A stretch of 64,000 nucleotides of DNA from Escherichia coli (GTDB taxonomy: Bacteria; Pseudomonadota; Gammaproteobacteria; Enterobacterales; Enterobacteriaceae). The first letter of the stretch is position 1, and each line of letters begins with the position of its first letter. The notes beneath the pieces are model-generated. The model searched no databases. It worked only from the letters and a program-made list of their open reading frames with translations, and was not told the DNA's origin. Position numbers and translations under genes: made by a program. The stretch is taken from assembly GCF_050320075.1 (NCBI RefSeq), contig NZ_CP190018.1, one strand, 5' to 3'. Shown in pieces: positions 1 through 17,416 of this stretch.

Positions 1-1278
1 AACACACAGTAGTGTCCCGTATGGCACGCGGAAACGATATCCTTGCGCGGCAATGGTTGCACTTTCCATATCAATTGCTACGGCCCGGCTTAAGTTAAAA
101 CGAAGTGCAGAAGCTGAGTAACGTAATTCCCAGTTCCTGTCATCTGTGGTTACCACAGTACCAGTACGTAGCCGCTGTTTGACTTCCTCACCGGGCCTGC
201 CGCTGACTAACTTGGTGGCGTCATAAAGCGCACGTTGCACTTCAGCAATACTCGGAATAGGAATATCGGGCGGCAGTACCGCATCAAGAACGTGGTCATC
301 GCGTAAATAAGCGTGTGCAAGTACATAATCTCCAATGGCCTGGCTTTCACGTAAGCCACCACAGTGACCAATCATCAACCAGACATCCGGGCGCAGCACC
401 GCCAGATGATCGCAGATGGTTTTAGCATTTGACGGTCCCACGCCAATATTCACCAGAGTAATACCCTGACCATCGGCGGTAATTAAATGCCATGCGGGCA
501 TCTGGTGTTTTTTCCATGCAAGGTCGGAAATGGCTTCTTCTGGCGCTTCGGTTTCGGCGGTGATCCAGTTCCCGCCAGCACAAGAAAGGGCAATGTAGGG
601 ACTATCAGGATCGAGGATCTGGCTGCATCCCCAACGAACGAATTCATCCACATAACGTGTGTAGTTGGTAAACAAGACGAACGGCTGAAAATGTTCAACT
701 GGCGTACCGGTATAATGGCGCAACCGCGCAAGGGAAAAATCGACGCGGCGCGCATCAAAATGCGATAGCGGGGAGAATTCCGTTGGATGATAAATGCCGT
801 CTGCAGTTTCATCGCCAATTTGCGCCAGTTCTGTTGTCGGGAAATAGCGAGTTAACCCAGCGCTCATTGAGCGATCAAGTGTCAATTCAGAGCCATCGAT
901 GACATAAGGATAAGGGATTTCATGCTGCGAGGGTTGCACCGAGATATGCGCACCATAATCCTGATACAGCAACGTAAGTTGTTCATTGAGATACGAACGA
1001 AAGAGAGTAGGGCGAGTAATCGTGGTGGTGTAGCTGCCTGCGTGGGTAAAACGACCAAATGCGCGCGTTTTGGGGGGATTGGTTGTGCTACCGTCCCAGG
1101 TTACGGTCAGTGATGGATAGACAAAAAGACCTTGTTTGCGGGCGTTTTCATCAGGTAATTCGCCACTTGTAATATATTTGCCAATGGCGTTGCGTAAAGC
1201 GACTACAGATTGCTCATACAGCGCGTCGAGTTTATCCAGTGCCTGAGCTGGGGTCAGACCGGAGCCCTTATTATTCAT
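1..1278 (-). CDS. amn: AMP nucleosidase, N-terminal ~426 codons; 3' end runs off window start
   Basis: Minus-strand frame open to position 1 with ATG at 1278-1276; N-terminus MNNKGSGLTPAQALDKLDALYEQSVVALRNAIG matches my recollection of E. coli Amn. Confidence 0.8.
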   Translation of the reverse strand, partial: MNNKGSGLTPAQALDKLDALYEQSVVALRNAIGKYITSGELPDENARKQGLFVYPSLTVTWDGSTTNPPKTRAFGRFTHAGSYTTTITRPTLFRSYLNEQLTLLYQDYGAHISVQPSQHEIPYPYVIDGSELTLDRSMSAGLTRYFPTTELAQIGDETADGIYHPTEFSPLSHFDARRVDFSLARLRHYTGTPVEHFQPFVLFTNYTRYVDEFVRWGCSQILDPDSPYIALSCAGGNWITAETEAPEEAISDLAWKKHQMPAWHLITADGQGITLVNIGVGPSNAKTICDHLAVLRPDVWLMIGHCGGLRESQAIGDYVLAHAYLRDDHVLDAVLPPDIPIPSIAEVQRALYDATKLVSGRPGEEVKQRLRTGTVVTTDDRNWELRYSASALRFNLSRAVAIDMESATIAAQGYRFRVPYGTLLCV

Positions 1279-1379
1279 GTGTGTCTCCTGTTCCATACAA
1301 TTACCGCACATCCGATAGTATGTCACAGGAATGTGAAACAAAAGTGTAAGGCGAAGATCGGATGATCTTCGCCAGGCTA

Positions 1380-2696
1380 TTAAGCGCGTTGATTGTCTTT
1401 CATCAACAAAGCGGTCATTGCGGAAATCAGGCATCCAGCCAGCAAATAAATAGCGACGCTATGCCAGTTCCCGGCAAAGTAAGTGATGAGTGCAGCGGCA
1501 ATAAAAGGTGTAAATCCACCGCCAACCACACTGGCAACCTGATAACCGACTCCAGCGCCACTATAGCGATAACTGGCACCAAACATTTCGGTAAACATCG
1601 GTTGTTGTACACACACCACCATATCATGCGCAATGTTTGCCAGCATGATGGAGAAGAAAACTATCCAGAAAATAGATTGTGCTTCAAGCGCCATAAAGAA
1701 AGGAAATGCGCTCAACGTTCCGAATAACGCACCTGTGATATAAACCCTGCGGCGACCAAAACGATCGGCAAGCCAGGCAAAACAGGGAATTGTCAGGCAG
1801 CTTAATCCACCGACCAGCAAACCAATATTAAGGAAAAGTTCGCGCGATAACCCCATATTCTGGGTTGAATAATTAAGTGCAAAGGCAGTAACAATGTACA
1901 TCGTCAGCAACTCGCACAGTCGTAGTGCAATAATCTTCAGGAAAGCACCGGGATGTCGTAACAGAGCTTCGATAACCGGGATGCGTTTTTTCGCGGCCGC
2001 TTGATTATGTTGCTGTTGTTCAAATTCCGCGGACTCCTCCATGCCATTGCGCACCCACAATGCTCCCAGTACCAGTACGATGCTAAACAGGAAAGGAATG
2101 CGCCAGCCCCAGCTCAAAAACTGTTCGTCAGTCGTCATCATACTGATCAATGAAACCAGTCCGGTTGAAAGCAGTAAACCTACTCCGTAGCCAACTTGTA
2201 CACCGCTACTGTAAAAGGCTTTTTTATTTTTCGGCGCACTTTCAACGGAAAGCAACGCTGCGCCTCCCCATTCGCCGCCGACGGCAAATCCCTGAATGGC
2301 ACGCAGTGTCACCAGCAAAATAGGTGCCCACCACCCAATGGTCGAGAATGAAGGAAGAATACCAATCAAGGCTGTCGCGATGCCCATCATCCAGACGGTC
2401 AGCATTAACATGCGCTTACGTCCCAGTCGGTCGCCAAAGTGACCGAAAATGACACCGCCTAGCGGTCGGAAAAGGAAGCCGACACCAAAGGTGGCAAATG
2501 CGGCGAGCGTTCCCATCGCCGGGCTTACTTGCGGGAAAAACTCGCGATTAAACACCAGTGCGGCGGTAATGCCATAGAGTAAAAAATCATACCAGTCGAC
2601 GACGGCACCAGCGAAACTGCCTAACGCAGCTCGTCGGGCGCGACTTAACGAAAGCGTCCCTTCATCGGGACGAGTGGAGATGAGCGTGGAGTCCAT
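1380..2696 (-). CDS. shiA: Shikimate transporter, MFS family
   Basis: 438-aa ORF with 12-TM MFS features (GHFGDRLGRKR motif); conserved position next to amn. Confidence 0.85.
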   Translation of the reverse strand: MDSTLISTRPDEGTLSLSRARRAALGSFAGAVVDWYDFLLYGITAALVFNREFFPQVSPAMGTLAAFATFGVGFLFRPLGGVIFGHFGDRLGRKRMLMLTVWMMGIATALIGILPSFSTIGWWAPILLVTLRAIQGFAVGGEWGGAALLSVESAPKNKKAFYSSGVQVGYGVGLLLSTGLVSLISMMTTDEQFLSWGWRIPFLFSIVLVLGALWVRNGMEESAEFEQQQHNQAAAKKRIPVIEALLRHPGAFLKIIALRLCELLTMYIVTAFALNYSTQNMGLSRELFLNIGLLVGGLSCLTIPCFAWLADRFGRRRVYITGALFGTLSAFPFFMALEAQSIFWIVFFSIMLANIAHDMVVCVQQPMFTEMFGASYRYSGAGVGYQVASVVGGGFTPFIAAALITYFAGNWHSVAIYLLAGCLISAMTALLMKDNQRA

Positions 2697-3010
2697 AATG
2701 ATCCTGTTTGTACTGTCTTTTTATAATTAGTATGGAAAAGGTAACTCACATTGCCGTCGATCTATAAACGAACCTTATGAGACTACCTCGACAGAGCGCA
2801 TCTGCAAATGATTTTATGGCTGATTAGCGGCAACATGAAAAATTCGATGGAAGATGAAAGCACGGGCGTTGCTGGTGTTGTTTAAGGATTAAGCAGAGCA
2901 CCCACAGGTTCGAGATATGAAACATAAAAGTCCGCATATGTACAAAATAGCACCCTGATGAGTCTGATAGACTGCATTGCATTATAACCAGTAGGGAGGC
3001 GAGGTTAGGT

Positions 3011-4063
3011 ATGTTTTTAGCATCATTGTTGAGACGTATTGCATTTAGTTACTACGATTATAAAGCTAATAATTTCAATATTGGAAAAACAGACTTTGTT
3101 GTCATCCATATTCCCGATCAAATTGGCGATGCTATGGCCATCTTTCCAGTTATTCGGGCGATTGAAATGCATAAAATAAAGCATCTTTTAATTGTTACTT
3201 CGACTATTAATTTAGAAGTCTTTAATGCGCTCAAACTTGAACAGACTAAATTAACATTAGTTACAATGACTATGCAGGATCACGCAACATTAAAAGAAAT
3301 AAAAAATTTAGCGAAGAACATAACACTGCAATACGGTACGCCGGATCTTTGTATAGAGGCGATGCGTAAAAAGAACCTGAAAACGATGATATTTATCAGT
3401 CAGTTGAAAGCAAAAACGAATTTTCAGGTTGTTGGTTTAACCATGAAGTGCTATTCCCCTTTGTGTAAGGACGCGTCCCGGATGGATCAGAGTCTCCGGG
3501 CTCCCGTACCCATGACATGGGCATTTATGATGCGTGAGGCGGGTTTTCCAGCAGTCAGGCCAATATATGAATTGCCACTAAGTGAGGATGTACTCGATGA
3601 GGTGCGCGAGGAAATGCGATCGTTAGGAGCTTACATTGCGCTCAATTTAGAAGGTAGTGCACAGGAACGTACATTTTCATTATCGATAGCAGAAAATCTA
3701 ATAGCAAAAATTCAAAGTGAAACAGATATGCCAATAGTGATCGTTCATGGACCAAAAGGGGAAGATAAAGCCAGGGTATTAGTGGATTGTTATAATAATG
3801 TCTTCCGTTTATCCTTATCACCCTCGATTAAACGTTCGGCAGCAATCATAAAAGATGCTTATATCGCAATAACTCCTGACACCTCAATATTACATATGGC
3901 AAGTGCCTATAATACCCCCGTTGTTGCAATTTATGCTGATTACAAAACGCGATGGCCCGCAATGGCCGATGTTTCGGAGTCAGTCGTCGTTGGGCAAAAA
4001 ATTGACAATATAAGTCTGGATGAATTCGCAAAGGCATTAAAAAGTGTTTTGGCGAGAATATGA
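3011..4063 (+). CDS. yeeL: Putative glycosyltransferase (family 9 / heptosyltransferase-like), intact
   Basis: 350-aa ORF with good RBS, markedly AT-rich versus flanks; sits between shiA and yeeJ where K-12 carries the split yeeL pseudogene (from memory). Confidence 0.55.
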   Translation: MFLASLLRRIAFSYYDYKANNFNIGKTDFVVIHIPDQIGDAMAIFPVIRAIEMHKIKHLLIVTSTINLEVFNALKLEQTKLTLVTMTMQDHATLKEIKNLAKNITLQYGTPDLCIEAMRKKNLKTMIFISQLKAKTNFQVVGLTMKCYSPLCKDASRMDQSLRAPVPMTWAFMMREAGFPAVRPIYELPLSEDVLDEVREEMRSLGAYIALNLEGSAQERTFSLSIAENLIAKIQSETDMPIVIVHGPKGEDKARVLVDCYNNVFRLSLSPSIKRSAAIIKDAYIAITPDTSILHMASAYNTPVVAIYADYKTRWPAMADVSESVVVGQKIDNISLDEFAKALKSVLARI

Positions 4064-4324
4064 GGCAGTATTTATGCATATTAATGCCGATCTGTTATGA
4101 ACGGTGGTGTCATCAATACTCTGTGGCTGGTCAATCATTACAGAAAGCCAGTCTTTGGAGCAAAGCTGTACTCACCGGATACAACCATAGTCACACCGAA
4201 CGCGAATCTGGCGGTATCGCATTTTTATTTATTCATTTTCTGTGAGAGAAGGGCAAGTTCTGTAGAGGGAATGTAAAAAAGAGTGCCCCGAATGGAGCAC
4301 TCTTTAAGGAATTATAGCGGAAAA

Positions 4325-12307
<7,983 letters not shown>

Positions 12308-12619
12308 GCTTACCTTCCCTGAACGAGCTAACATAAATGCGCCCTTTCTAGCACAGCGAAAAAATATAAATCCTGATAGCAATATGATTGAAAATTAATA
12401 ACTTTTCGTTAGGTAGTTTTGGGTGTGAGTTGCAAGAGGGGAGACTACTGAATTACTCAAGTTTTATAATCGAGGGGAAAATGGTGATGGCGTCCATAGC
12501 AAAACGCCCTCAACCATTAAGGTCGAGGGCGCTTAAGATGTCAAAAACCCGCTATCCGTTAAAAAGCAATGCTCAACTAAGATCAGTGACATTGCGCTAA
12601 AAAGCGAATTTTTAGAATT

Positions 12620-12695
12620 TGGCTCCTCTGACTGGACTCGAACCAGTGACATACGGATTAACAGTCCGCCGTTCTACCGACTGAACTACAGAGGA
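12620..12695 (-). tRNA. asnT: tRNA-Asn (GUU)
   Basis: 76-nt reverse complement reads TCCTCTGTAGTTCAGTCGGTAGAACGGCGGACTGTTAATCCG...GAGCCA, canonical E. coli tRNA-Asn. Confidence 0.9.
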
Positions 12696-12795
12696 ATCGT
12701 GTGAACGGGGCGCATATTACTTAGCGGTACCTTGTCTGTCAACACTAAATTTCATAAGTCATTTCAATTGGTTAATTAATCTGCAAAGTTGTTAA

Positions 12796-13593
12796 TTAAT
12801 GAACATTCGTCGCCGAAAACGAGTCTGTATCATTAGCGTGATGCAGTCTCTGCAAAGGATCTTGTTGATAAAATTGGCAGAAACGTTGCCACAATGAAGG
12901 GAAACGAGGAGCAAAAAGTTCTGGGGCGCTAAAGAAATATTCAGAAAGTACGGCAAAACACTCAGCAGGATCACTGGCAGCATAAGCATCGATGCTCGCC
13001 GCATTCTCGCCAACTAATTCGATTTCTTCCTGAATATTGTTCATTGCAGCATGAAGATCGTGTTCCCAGCCAGCAACCTCACGCAACGGAATAAAGGGAA
13101 CTCCGCTTGCGCGATCGCCATTACGGGTGTCCAGCTTATGAGCGACTTCATGAATAATCAGGTTAAAACCAGAAGCATCAAAAGAATCTTGTATATCCAA
13201 CCAGTTCAAAACGATAGGCCCTTGCTGCCAGCTCTGACCTGACTGAACAATACGTTGGTTATGCACCAGACCGATATCGTCTTCCCATTCGTCATCGACC
13301 ACAAATGGCGCAGGATAAATTAAGACTTCATGAAAACCATCCAGCCATTCCAGTCCTAACTCCAGAACGGGCAGGCAAAATAGAAGTGCTATCCGGCAGC
13401 TTCTTAATGAATCCAGTTCAAAGCCCTGTAAAGGAACAAGCCGCTTTTGCTGTAAAAAACGTTCGGCAAGAGTGACTAATTTGCTTTGTTCCTGTTCCGT
13501 CAGACACGTTAAAAGGGGGATCGATAGTGCTTCCTGCCAGGGAAGGGCAGTTTGATGTGCTGATTCTTGTACTTTCCAGGGCCACTTAATCAT
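12796..13593 (-). CDS. mtfA: Mlc titration factor A (zinc-dependent peptidase fold)
   Basis: ORF 12796..13632; likely start [14 protein letters not shown] at 13593; HEVAH motif present. Confidence 0.8.
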
Positions 13594-13686
13594 CGTTTTG
13601 CTCGCAAACTCGTCACTTGAACAAAATTGCACGGACAGGGACTGTTAAAATGCCAAATTTCCTGGCATCATGGCAACCATCTGAAC

Positions 13687-13776
13687 GGAGAGATGCCGGA
13701 GCGGCTGAACGGACCGGTCTCGAAAACCGGAGTAGGGGCAACTCTACCGGGGGTTCAAATCCCCCTCTCTCCGCCA
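13687..13776 (+). tRNA. serU: tRNA-Ser (CGA), integration target of the prophage
   Basis: GGAGAGATGCCGGAGCGGCTGAACGGACCGGTCTCGAAAACCGG...CTCTCCGCCA, 90 nt with long variable arm; 3' 62 nt repeated at 61595-61656. Confidence 0.9.
13715..13776 (+). repeat. attL core (3' 62 nt of serU)
   Basis: Identical to 61595-61656. Confidence 0.85.
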
Positions 13777-13828
13777 AAATTCAATCACTTATACATCATT
13801 AAGTCAGTGACAAAAATCACACTTGGAA

Positions 13829-14854
13829 TTACTTGGAATATTTTCTTGGAATATTTTCAGGTAACGGGACATCAAGTGTCGGTGAAACTTTAACCTTCCT
13901 GTCATAGATTAGCACTTGCCCCTCGGTTTTGTGACCAGAGAAAAGTTGCTTATCCCGACTGCTTCCTTCATAGTCTGAAATTCCTTTCGCCTTCAGATCA
14001 TGAAAGGTGAAGTCGGTTAAAATACCTGAAATTTTGCCTGCGCGATTTCTTGCTTCTACCCACATTTCGTTAAAGCCTTTGTACATATATCGGTTGCCGT
14101 ATTGATTGCTGATTACATAGGCGGATGTTGGTAACTGTTTTGCTTTTTCGATCGCCGCCTGTAATCGTGGACTCCATGCTTTTATCTGTTTTTTTCCTGT
14201 TTTCCCTTGCTGGATAAAGATCCCGTCGTTTCCAATCTGCTCCCATTTCAGCGATAACACATCGGAAACCCTCGCTGCACACAGATAGGCAATTTCCATT
14301 GCGATAAAAACAGGAAGAGGTGCAACGCTTAATACTGCCTGGTATTCTTTGTCGGTTACATATCGTTCGCGGTTTTTGGCCTTGAATTTACTTACACCTG
14401 CACATGGGTTAGCCTTCACGTACCCTCGCTCATACCCCCAACTGTAAACGCGGGACATACTGCTTTTTTCATGGTTGGCTTGCGTTTTACTCTGTTCCCC
14501 TCTCTTGTCCATGTATCGACGGATGTGTTCTGGTTTTATGGAATCTGCCGGCACCTTACCGAATACGGCAAGCAACTTTTTTTGATGTTGCAGATAATCT
14601 TTTTGTGTTCTTGGACTGAGGTCACTGTAATAGGCGCTGGCGAGGAATTTTTCCCACAAGCGACCGAATGTCATTGCACGATCGCGATTATTTACAGTTT
14701 CCTCATACTTTTTCCATAAAGCAGCTAAACCATCCTTGATGGCGGTTAGTGTTACAGATTCTCTGGATGTTGGTTTCCATACATAACTATATTTATTTGG
14801 GTATACATTTGGAGGTAATTTTTCGTGTTCAGGATTTTTCCTTCGTCTTCCCAT
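13829..14854 (-). CDS. int: Phage integrase, tyrosine recombinase
   Basis: 341-aa ORF immediately adjacent to tRNA att site; typical lambdoid Int length and position. Confidence 0.8.
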   Translation of the reverse strand: MGRRRKNPEHEKLPPNVYPNKYSYVWKPTSRESVTLTAIKDGLAALWKKYEETVNNRDRAMTFGRLWEKFLASAYYSDLSPRTQKDYLQHQKKLLAVFGKVPADSIKPEHIRRYMDKRGEQSKTQANHEKSSMSRVYSWGYERGYVKANPCAGVSKFKAKNRERYVTDKEYQAVLSVAPLPVFIAMEIAYLCAARVSDVLSLKWEQIGNDGIFIQQGKTGKKQIKAWSPRLQAAIEKAKQLPTSAYVISNQYGNRYMYKGFNEMWVEARNRAGKISGILTDFTFHDLKAKGISDYEGSSRDKQLFSGHKTEGQVLIYDRKVKVSPTLDVPLPENIPRKYSK

Positions 14855-15057
14855 CAGATCGCACCAAAATTCGGCTCTACCTCGCGTGGTGGTAAAGTTT
14901 TATTGCAGGTAAATAGATCCCGGCTGACAATCGGTTTGCCACTACGATTGGTATAGAACGGAAGCCCGTTTTCCATTAACCATTTTCGCTGGTGGCTTGC
15001 ATATTTGCAGCCCGTTAATATTAGCAATTCATCTTCGGTTAAAAATAAGCTGCTCAT
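14854..15057 (-). CDS. Putative excisionase-like small protein
   Basis: 67-aa ORF directly upstream of and overlapping int start; position typical of xis. Confidence 0.45.
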   Translation of the reverse strand: MSSLFLTEDELLILTGCKYASHQRKWLMENGLPFYTNRSGKPIVSRDLFTCNKTLPPREVEPNFGAI

Positions 15058-15115
15058 AGCTATATCTCATAACCGCCGCTAACTATATACGGTTAGCGGC
15101 AATTAGGGTTGAACA

Positions 15116-17416
15116 TTAAAAATCAGCCTGACTCGGGATCAGTTTTTGCCAGATAGCTGAAACGTATTTTGCCTGGTAACGAGCGTCATCAAGTGCATTA
15201 TGGCGCTCACCTTCGAATGGAATAGCCGTTCTGGCATCGAAGTCTATGGCTTTCCCCAGCTCAACGATTGTGCGTACATCGCGATCGTTGTAGTAACGCC
15301 ACGGGCAGGGGATCCCCTGCCGTTCGTATGAACGGCGCAAAATCGTGTTGTCGAAGTTGGCTCCATTTCCCCAGACCTGAACAAAAAATTCACCGGAGTT
15401 TTCGTCGATAAATTCCCGCAATTGTAACAGTGCATCATCTAACGGGATTTCATCGGTCATAATGGCAGATTGCGCTTCGCGTGATTGCTTAAGCCACCAT
15501 TTAATGGTGTCCCGATCAATGACTCCGCCAGCAGTTTCCAGATCGATAGTCTTACTAAATTCCGGTCCCATATCTCCGGTTTGCGGATCGAAAAATATTG
15601 CACCTATTGAGATGATCGGGGCATCAGGATTTTTTCCCATGGTTTCAAGGTCGATCATTAGATGGTCACACGTCCTGCTGGTGGATGTGATTTCGTGATG
15701 ACCATTCACCGTAATTAAGGGATCTGCCGTCTCGCCAGTTTTACTATCGCTGGCGTGGTCCTGAGCGCTGCCAGCATTCTCCTTGTGTGGATGTTCAGCG
15801 CCTTCCATTTCCTCCGGATCATTTTCCTGAACTTCAACCTGATTCTCTTCATCGAATGTTTTCTGGTATGTTGCGTCGCCCATCACCGCGCCACAATCAG
15901 GGCAGTTGCCGCCACCGCTCTGACCGCAGGCGGAGCAGACTTTTTCCGGTTCCTGTTGCGCTACTGGTTCGGATTGTTTCGTTTCTGGCTCGTTTTGTAA
16001 CGCATTTGGGCTGTTTTGTTCCGCTTTTTGGTCGTTCCGTTCCGATTCATGCTGGTTCTGGTTCACAGAATCGCGAGTCTGGATCCCCTTGACCCATTTC
16101 GGATCATTAGGGTCGCTAATCCCCTCAACAAATTCACCACGCGATACAGCAAGTAACTTATCGGCGTCAGGCTGGCTGATATTGGCTGCCTGCATAATTT
16201 TGTTTACTTCGTCAGCGGTGACTTTTACTTGGTTAGCGGAACTCACCTGCGACTGAGCATCCAGCGACTGCGCGTTCTGGCAATGTTCAGTTGTATCCGG
16301 TTCCATTGTTTCAGTTGTTGCCTGTTCACCTGCCATTGCGTCAGATGGTTGTGGTTTTTCTTCTTCTGTTTCACGCTCAGTAACCACCTCGCGGTTAATT
16401 TCTTCCAGGATATCTTTTTCCGGCGTATGCCGGGCAGCTGTGAGAGTTTCCTTGCTGGGGTTCTCGTGATCAGTTTCCGTCAAATAGGCGTTGATATACC
16501 CCTGAAGGCGTCCCGGGTAGTGATAAAATTCAGGGTGTGCGCTTCGGATAAGTGCAAAAATAGCGGCGCGGGAATAGTCCAGAATACCCGGGGTTGCACG
16601 AAGTGCTGCGGACCATTCTTTGAACGGACTTTCTTTTTTCAGGACTACTTCTTTTGCGCGACGATAAACGCTGCCCGGAATTTCATAAATATTAAAATCC
16701 ATCGGAAGTGTGGCTGCTGCAATCTCCACATCCAGTGTGTCGAGGGTGTGTACTAAATTCGGACTGCGATCGGTTTTGTTCCCACCGCCAGCATTAGCAC
16801 CGGAAGCCGTGCGGGTGATGCGTGAAACACGATTTCCTTTCATCCACTCTTTTGTCAGCAGACCCCGATCAGTGTAGTCAGCGTCCAGGTATGCTTCGAA
16901 AAAAGCAGTTATTAGTCCCAGGTCTGAATTACCAGGATTAGGGAAAACTTTGTCAGTGTCACGAACCAGTTTGTGGAGGTCGCGAATCTCCAGCGAGTCG
17001 AGCAGACTGGTTTTATGCGAAATAGCCAGGGCAGTAACAGCCGGTAGTTCTTCAGCCCGTGCAATGTGTAATGCCTGGAGTTCGTCGCGTGAAACGTGCG
17101 TTACTGGTTTTTCGCTGCCGTGTTGAGCAAGCCAACGAATGGGCAGTTCCTGACCGGAGACAGGTAGAAGCATGCTCTCCTCAATCTCAGTCATGTCTTC
17201 GCCGTTGATGTTGGTATTATCAGTGCTGGCTGATTTGTCCTGAACAGAGGGGGAAGGGCCGATAAATGTCATTGTGATGCCATCTTTCCCGCCTTTTTCA
17301 TAGCGGTTGCAGAATTCAGTATCAAACACGCCTTCTGGCGGAAGGTCGTCAACAACGGGCAAATTGACGCGGACGGGTTTTTTAAAGTCGTCTTCATCAT
17401 AATCGTTGTCATCCAT
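15116..17416 (-). CDS. Large phage protein with C-terminal DnaQ-like (DEDDh) 3'-5' exonuclease domain and central Cys4 zinc ribbon
   Basis: 766 aa; motifs [27 protein letters not shown] in C-terminal 180 aa; CSACG...CPDCG ribbon; acidic/Gln-rich linker. Confidence 0.6.

Follow-up and report, generated by a model that had tools for sequence, protein, structure and literature searches.

An intact, AT-rich family 9 glycosyltransferase gene, yeeL, adjoins the adhesin gene yeeJ of Escherichia coli and is distributed independently of it

The stretch of Escherichia coli DNA analysed here (64,000 nucleotides, hereafter the window) carries an intact yeeL gene, an uninterrupted ORF of 350 codons plus stop with an ATG start (3011..4063, plus strand), which encodes a GT-B glycosyltransferase of CAZy/Pfam family 9 (GT9) and belongs to a distinct subfamily of it. 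This bears out the first-pass annotation in its description of a full-length, 350-residue, glycosyltransferase-like gene of distinctly low GC content (39.0% against 49.8% for the window) next to yeeJ, from which it is separated by 261 bp between the stop codons. The further suggestion that the product may be a functional partner of the YeeJ adhesin, for example through glycosylation, is not supported by comparison with other genomes. We favour instead, with modest confidence, a reading in which yeeL is an independent, horizontally acquired orphan, the product of which most likely adds a sugar to the lipopolysaccharide (LPS) core or to another envelope glycolipid shared by its hosts.

A Shine-Dalgarno-like purine run, GGGAGGCGAGG (2994..3004, plus strand), is placed 6 nt before the ATG, and the start codon is sound because homologues from six genera align with the YeeL N-terminus starting at Met1. 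The GC content of the gene is 0.390, and 0.353 at third codon positions, compared with 0.498 for the whole window, 0.502 for shiA and 0.500 for yeeJ; equal AT-richness is reached in just 4.6% of 1053-bp windows of the 64 kb, most of them in prophage, and AT-rich genes like this one may be silenced. On one side yeeL is divergent from the shikimate transporter gene shiA (1380..2696, minus strand), with an intergenic region of 314 bp (2697..3010, GC 0.414) that presumably holds the promoters of both genes. A promoter-consensus scan of 2600-4400 was uninformative, since it returned 5 sites where 4.8 are expected by chance, none of the five being in this intergenic region. On the other side yeeL is convergent with yeeJ (4325..12307, minus strand), an intact inverse-autotransporter adhesin gene, across the 261 bp at 4064..4324, in which a hairpin terminator with a 12-bp stem (4278-4305, minus strand) directly follows the yeeJ stop codon. 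This yeeJ is the long, UMN026-type variant, 2660 residues counted from MATKKRSG and equal in length to the O157 protein. Beyond it lie asnT, mtfA and serU, in the same order as the mtfA-asnT-yeeJ-yeeL-shiA-amn arrangement of K-12.

Assignment of YeeL to GT9 is supported by profile, fold and active site. The Pfam profile PF01075 (Glyco_transf_9) matches above its cutoff (E 7.6e-7, 29.1 bits against a cutoff of 22), over residues 233-321 only, and orthologues are labelled 'glycosyltransferase family 9 protein' in RefSeq. Searched against the PDB, a YeeL family profile found WaaC (E 5e-4) and WaaF, and no other meaningful match. An AF2 model built from 20 homologues (pLDDT 85.8, pTM 0.84) has two Rossmann-like domains, a helix at residues 2-13 preceding the canonical beta-alpha-beta Rossmann domain that begins at residue 29, and Foldseek placed WaaF, 3TOV (a GT9 protein of Veillonella) and WaaC at the top of its matches (E 1e-12 to 1e-10). 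A domain search for GT9 or heptosyltransferase membership therefore comes out in favour of a glycosyltransferase fold. Identity to these structures (WaaC/WaaF, 2H1F/2GT1/6DFE and 1PSW, and 3TOV) is only 12-15%, and equivalence to WaaC, WaaF or WaaQ is ruled out by the NCBIfam equivalogs, which score far under their cutoffs (TIGR02193, 38.1 against 185.3; TIGR02195, 18.7 against 134.6; TIGR02201, 16.9 against 170.2).

The residues of the active site are retained. Asp40 (codon 3128..3130, plus strand) corresponds to WaaC Asp13, the catalytic base, and the G39-D40 motif to which it belongs is invariant in 20 family members and aligns with the GD of WaaF and the LGD of WaaU. Arg220 (codon 3668..3670, plus strand), in an N-L-E-G-S-x-x-x-R-T motif of which R220-T221 is invariant in the YeeL family alignment, occupies the donor phosphate-binding position of WaaC Lys192. 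The GT9 donor-site motif is present as D290-T-S-I-L-H295 (codons 3878..3895, plus strand), equivalent to WaaC D261-T-G-L-S-H266, and D290, T291 and H295 are invariant in the 20 sequences and aligned to WaaC, WaaF and WaaU. Asp40 is also the counterpart of Asp110 of the glycosyltransferase TibC, for which a catalytic role has been described (PMC4358343). YeeL is thus probably catalytically active. It differs from WaaC in that the Glu222 position of the latter is not conserved in the family, and from WaaC and WaaF in that their N-terminal acceptor domain cannot be aligned with YeeL by sequence. This acceptor-side domain is nevertheless strongly conserved within the family and contains 79 of the 134 positions of YeeL that are invariant or nearly so, among them the nearly invariant cysteines 114, 147 and 152, all in the N-domain; the highly conserved loop 142-159 is placed with low confidence in the model. 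No signal peptide or transmembrane segment is found in YeeL (Kyte-Doolittle maximum 1.37, 19-residue window).

The first-pass annotation described the K-12 gene as a disrupted yeeL pseudogene represented by fragments. MG1655 yeeL (b4497) is indeed annotated as a pseudogene, although it is not fragmented: gene and locus (shiA-yeeL-yeeJ-asnT-mtfA) are those of the window, the length is again 1053 bp and the nucleotide sequences are 95.6% identical, and translation together with a three-way DNA alignment locates the sole lesion of the K-12 copy at codon 235, a CAA to TAA change, with neither frameshift nor deletion. In the window this codon (3713..3715, plus strand) is CAA, encoding Gln, and the copy is therefore intact. 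The TAA235 allele is common to K-12, BL21, ABWA45, Jtgc-02-2, APEC37 and PM22, the wild isolates among these coming from wastewater, urine, chicken and pig, and is therefore an inherited lineage allele and not a laboratory accident of K-12.

The yeeL locus is matched in 5,343 of 5,426 complete E. coli genomes (98%), and in 4,939 of the 5,426 at least 80% of the coding sequence is present in one piece. Records with 99% identity or more to the K-12 allele number 960, about 18% of complete genomes; among the K-12-like alleles sampled the stop is present in two at 99.7-99.8% identity and absent from one at 98.6%, and TAA235 thus appears to be common to about 18% of complete E. coli genomes. When 12 genomes were taken at even steps down the ranking, the 350-codon frame was intact in nine and interrupted by TAA235 in three. 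Together with the population counts this indicates that intact yeeL is the norm, the state of roughly three quarters of the 5,426 genomes, and so not unusual. A few genomes have IS1 insertions or deletions in yeeL, and Shigella sonnei has truncated forms, which marks yeeL as dispensable and repeatedly lost. In itself an intact copy is an ordinary finding, since annotations of the gene exist in thousands of genomes and the pseudogene of K-12 has been recorded; in strain KE55 the protein WP_000477867.1 ('glycosyltransferase family 9 protein' in RefSeq) is 100% identical across the coding sequence, and the genome is identical to the window over the yeeL region, 2697-4324. In KE55 a copy of ISEc31 is present in the shiA-yeeL intergenic region, upstream of the identical yeeL (locus coordinates 3204-4417), where it could change expression of shiA or yeeL.

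These losses raise the question of whether yeeL is a horizontally acquired passenger, functionless in E. coli now, which is silent or drifting to loss and is still intact only for lack of time. The several independent inactivations are what such a passenger would show, as are the AT-richness of the gene relative to its host in most Enterobacteriaceae, the lack of a promoter signal above chance in the 2600-4400 scan, and a dN/dS three- to six-fold above that of shiA. The values themselves (0.15-0.38 for diverged allele pairs, against 0.04-0.09 for shiA) are however well below 1 in pairs drawn from across the phylogroups, and suggest that yeeL is constrained, less tightly than shiA. The frame is intact in most genomes, the gene is kept even where the flanking yeeJ has decayed, and the catalytic and acceptor-domain residues are invariant across six genera. 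We consequently regard decay of a functionless passenger as quite unlikely. Horizontal acquisition is a separate matter: the AT content of yeeL exceeds that of the DNA around it in Escherichia, Pantoea, Pseudocitrobacter and Hafnia, and not in Rosenbergiella or Carnimonas, a pattern that fits spread as a single gene.

The proposed partnership with YeeJ would make YeeL a dedicated glycosyltransferase that acts on the adhesin passenger while it is still in the cytoplasm, in the way that TibA is modified by TibC and AIDA-I by AAH. The arrangement of the genes does not support it. They are convergent, and therefore not co-transcribed, and an operon with yeeJ is ruled out by this orientation and by the strong hairpin terminator after yeeJ. 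Function dissociates as well. YeeJ of MG1655 is surface-displayed and promotes biofilm formation (PMC5595812), and MG1655, the strain in which it was characterised there, is yeeL-null; conversely, in the B2 strains JJ1886 and Seattle 1946 yeeL is intact and the adjoining yeeJ is a frameshifted, truncated remnant. The intactness of the two genes therefore dissociates in both directions. In these B2 strains the yeeJ remnant is followed by the yersiniabactin island (fyuA, ybtE). Across the species the mismatch is equally plain, since yeeL DNA is present in 98% of genomes and intact yeeJ, according to two papers, in 35-40% of the complete genomes surveyed. Two papers on YeeJ and inverse autotransporters, PMC5595812 among them, make no mention of glycosylation.

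Outside E. coli the association disappears altogether. No inverse autotransporter was found within 10 kb of yeeL at any of 20 species-level loci, or in any of ten individually inspected contexts; when 21 species-representative loci were screened by tblastn, the sole one with YeeJ-like sequence was on a contig derived from E. coli, and the loci inspected outside E. coli held no long adhesin-like ORFs near the yeeL homologues. Some relatives even keep the E. coli neighbourhood (shiA and/or mtfA) without yeeJ: the order is amn-shiA-yeeL-mtfA in Pseudocitrobacter and shiA-yeeL-LysR-LysR-mtfA in Enterobacteriaceae bacterium G50, both of which thus retain the shiA-yeeL pairing, and yeeL adjoins mtfA in Escherichia sp. 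MOD1-EC7003. Other Escherichia lineages have hchA-yeeL-mtfA-shiA, E. albertii has yeeL directly upstream of yciA and adjoining an unannotated 240-residue ORF (possibly tonB), another taxon has it between maeB and eut, and in Erwinia, Pantoea, Hafnia and Rosenbergiella it occupies yet other settings. The yeeL homologue of E. whittamii adjoins a gene for an OLD-family AAA/TOPRIM nuclease and ORFs of 819 and at least 1112 residues (locus coordinates 7216-16950), a region that may be a defence island; when these large ORFs were checked as possible adhesins, one proved to be the OLD-family ATPase/nuclease and the other two had no Pfam or YeeJ similarity.

Nor does YeeL resemble the glycosyltransferases known to modify autotransporters. 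The hallmarks of TibC are an N-terminal beta-barrel of about 97 residues, a Cys4 iron finger formed by C339, C342, C358 and C370 as an insertion in the C-lobe, and a beta-hairpin thumb (PMC4358343). All three features of this BAHT class (TibC, AAH) are absent from the 350-residue YeeL model and sequence, and where the C-lobe of TibC has four cysteines the C-terminal half of YeeL has one, C260, which is unconserved. Sequence searching gave no match to TibC at E<=10. The genetic setting and the substrate differ too: BAHT genes lie upstream of the adhesin gene and are co-oriented with it, whereas yeeL is convergent with yeeJ, and BAHT substrates are of the AIDA-type beta-helix, whereas YeeJ is an inverse autotransporter composed of Ig-like Big_1 domains. 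A TibC/AAH-like identity is ruled out by sequence, by fold ranking, by the missing beta-barrel and iron finger and by gene orientation, and we consider a dedicated YeeJ-modifying role to be very unlikely. A looser arrangement, in which glycosylation by YeeL of the YeeJ passenger, or of some other surface protein, might be facultative in strains with both genes intact, as in the window, has in our estimate hardly any probability; were it true, no glycosyltransferase for an inverse (type Ve) autotransporter would have been described before YeeL. Comparative evidence contradicts any coupling of the adhesin to the glycosyltransferase encoded next to it, and such a pairing is unfit as an annotation.

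The relatives of YeeL point instead to LPS. Full-length orthologues of 52-74% identity are found in Escherichia, Pseudocitrobacter, Hafnia, Erwinia, Pantoea and Rosenbergiella, and a profile search of 1.8 billion representatives returned 34 proteins at E<1e-30 and 499 at E<1e-10. The next-nearest relatives, 25-35% identical over their full length (E 1e-27 to 1e-73) and far closer than any K-12 Waa paralogue, provide three contexts on which the LPS link is based, in LPS-core/O-antigen clusters with Wzy_C ligase genes and genes of the GT2, GT4 and GT9 families. In Carnimonas bestiolae, P0108 and another YeeL-like paralogue are accompanied by two Wzy_C (WaaL-type) genes and by genes of families GT2 and GT4; a metagenomic relative (P0109) adjoins an epimerase gene, a GT2 gene and a Wzy_C ligase gene; and an uncultured bacterium encodes a 780-residue fusion (P0266; also P0136) of a Wzy_C (WaaL-like) domain to a full-length YeeL-like GT9 domain, the gene for which adjoins hldD, hldE and an lpxL-like gene for a lipid-A acyltransferase (locus coordinates 10001-12343). 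A fourth relative in this identity range is an orphan, like yeeL of E. coli, which stands alone where the Carnimonas, metagenomic and fusion genes are within LPS clusters or fused to a ligase-like domain. The 4-kb contig of another distant match, P0106, was too short to give a context.

Among the GT9 paralogues of K-12 the best match, and the only one of near-full length, is WaaU (RfaK of K-12), a putative ADP-heptose:LPS heptosyltransferase IV of the outer core; WaaC, WaaQ and WaaF match the C-terminal donor domain only. The hhalign alignment of WaaU with YeeL (E 6e-8, probability 94.7%, 292 columns, about 20% identity; 21.7 bits by hmmsearch) spans both the GD and the D-T-x-x-x-H motifs, and the waaU gene is AT-rich as well (GC 0.31). 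It sits in the waa cluster beside waaL, in contrast to the orphan yeeL between shiA and yeeJ, and as K-12 has both loci the two are not orthologues; the comparison indicates that YeeL and WaaU represent related subfamilies. Conservation of the acceptor domain across genera that have no YeeJ, and that have little in common beyond the enterobacterial envelope, argues for an acceptor common to all hosts. Taken with the relatives in LPS clusters and the WaaU alignment, it leads us to favour an orphan glycosyltransferase of the LPS-core type.

The acceptor could nonetheless be something else, whether a different surface or periplasmic protein, enterobacterial common antigen, an intermediate of capsule or colanic acid, or a small molecule. 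The close orthologues (at least 52% identity) have no waa or hld homologues within 10 kb, and lie outside LPS clusters among varied neighbours, such as MFS transporters and LysR regulators in Erwinia and Rosenbergiella; the conserved loop and cysteines of the acceptor domain set it apart from that of WaaC and WaaF; and Wzy_C domains, as in the ligases of the remoter relatives, also occur in protein O-oligosaccharyltransferases. Yet no partner gene is conserved beside the close orthologues in the contexts examined, the nearest structural and profile neighbours of YeeL are all LPS-core enzymes, and the remote family members accompany hldD/hldE, a lipid-A acyltransferase gene and core glycosyltransferase genes. 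We judge such an alternative acceptor unlikely.

Assembly of these observations suggests how an LPS-directed YeeL might work. The stand-alone, AT-rich gene, which most E. coli keep, would have been acquired horizontally, and its cytoplasmic product would act independently of the adhesin gene, transferring a single sugar onto the LPS core or onto some other glycolipid of the envelope that all hosts have in common. By analogy with the precedent of the family this sugar would be heptose, donated by ADP-heptose; the donor may alternatively be a UDP-sugar, GT9 also including a GlcNAc transferase. The modification would be a non-essential side branch, which K-12 and BL21, having the null allele, would lack. 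More specifically, in most wild E. coli the LPS core might bear a side-branch sugar, as yet undescribed, that is added by YeeL, a proposal that we put forward tentatively and consider somewhat doubtful; we know of no residue left unassigned in the published E. coli core structures, R1-R4 and K-12. Such a sugar, if real, would have been overlooked because K-12 and BL21 both carry TAA235. Literature searches turned up yeeL only through use of the K-12 pseudogene as a neutral integration site. K-12 and BL21 are in effect natural nulls for a glycosyltransferase that remains intact in roughly three quarters of the complete genomes of E. coli; should YeeL modify LPS or some other glycan of the envelope, the modification would have escaped studies of laboratory strains.

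Much of the remainder of the window is a lambdoid prophage (about 13800 to about 61000; terminase, portal, S49 peptidase, tail fibres) integrated at the tRNA-Ser gene serU (13687-13776, plus strand), with its integrase gene at 13829-14854 (minus strand). An Rfam scan of 1-16000 found two tRNAs only. The first 25 kb of the prophage are at least 80% covered in just 32 of the 5,426 complete E. coli genomes, and KE55 has no insert at serU. At the prophage end, directly before zinT (62324-62974), an AT-rich stretch (about 59300-62500, GC 0.28-0.32) includes a gene for a MASE4-GGDEF diguanylate cyclase of 443 residues (59671-61002, minus strand). The neighbouring 129-residue ORF (59213-59602) has no Pfam match, and the MASE4-GGDEF gene itself looks like prophage cargo.
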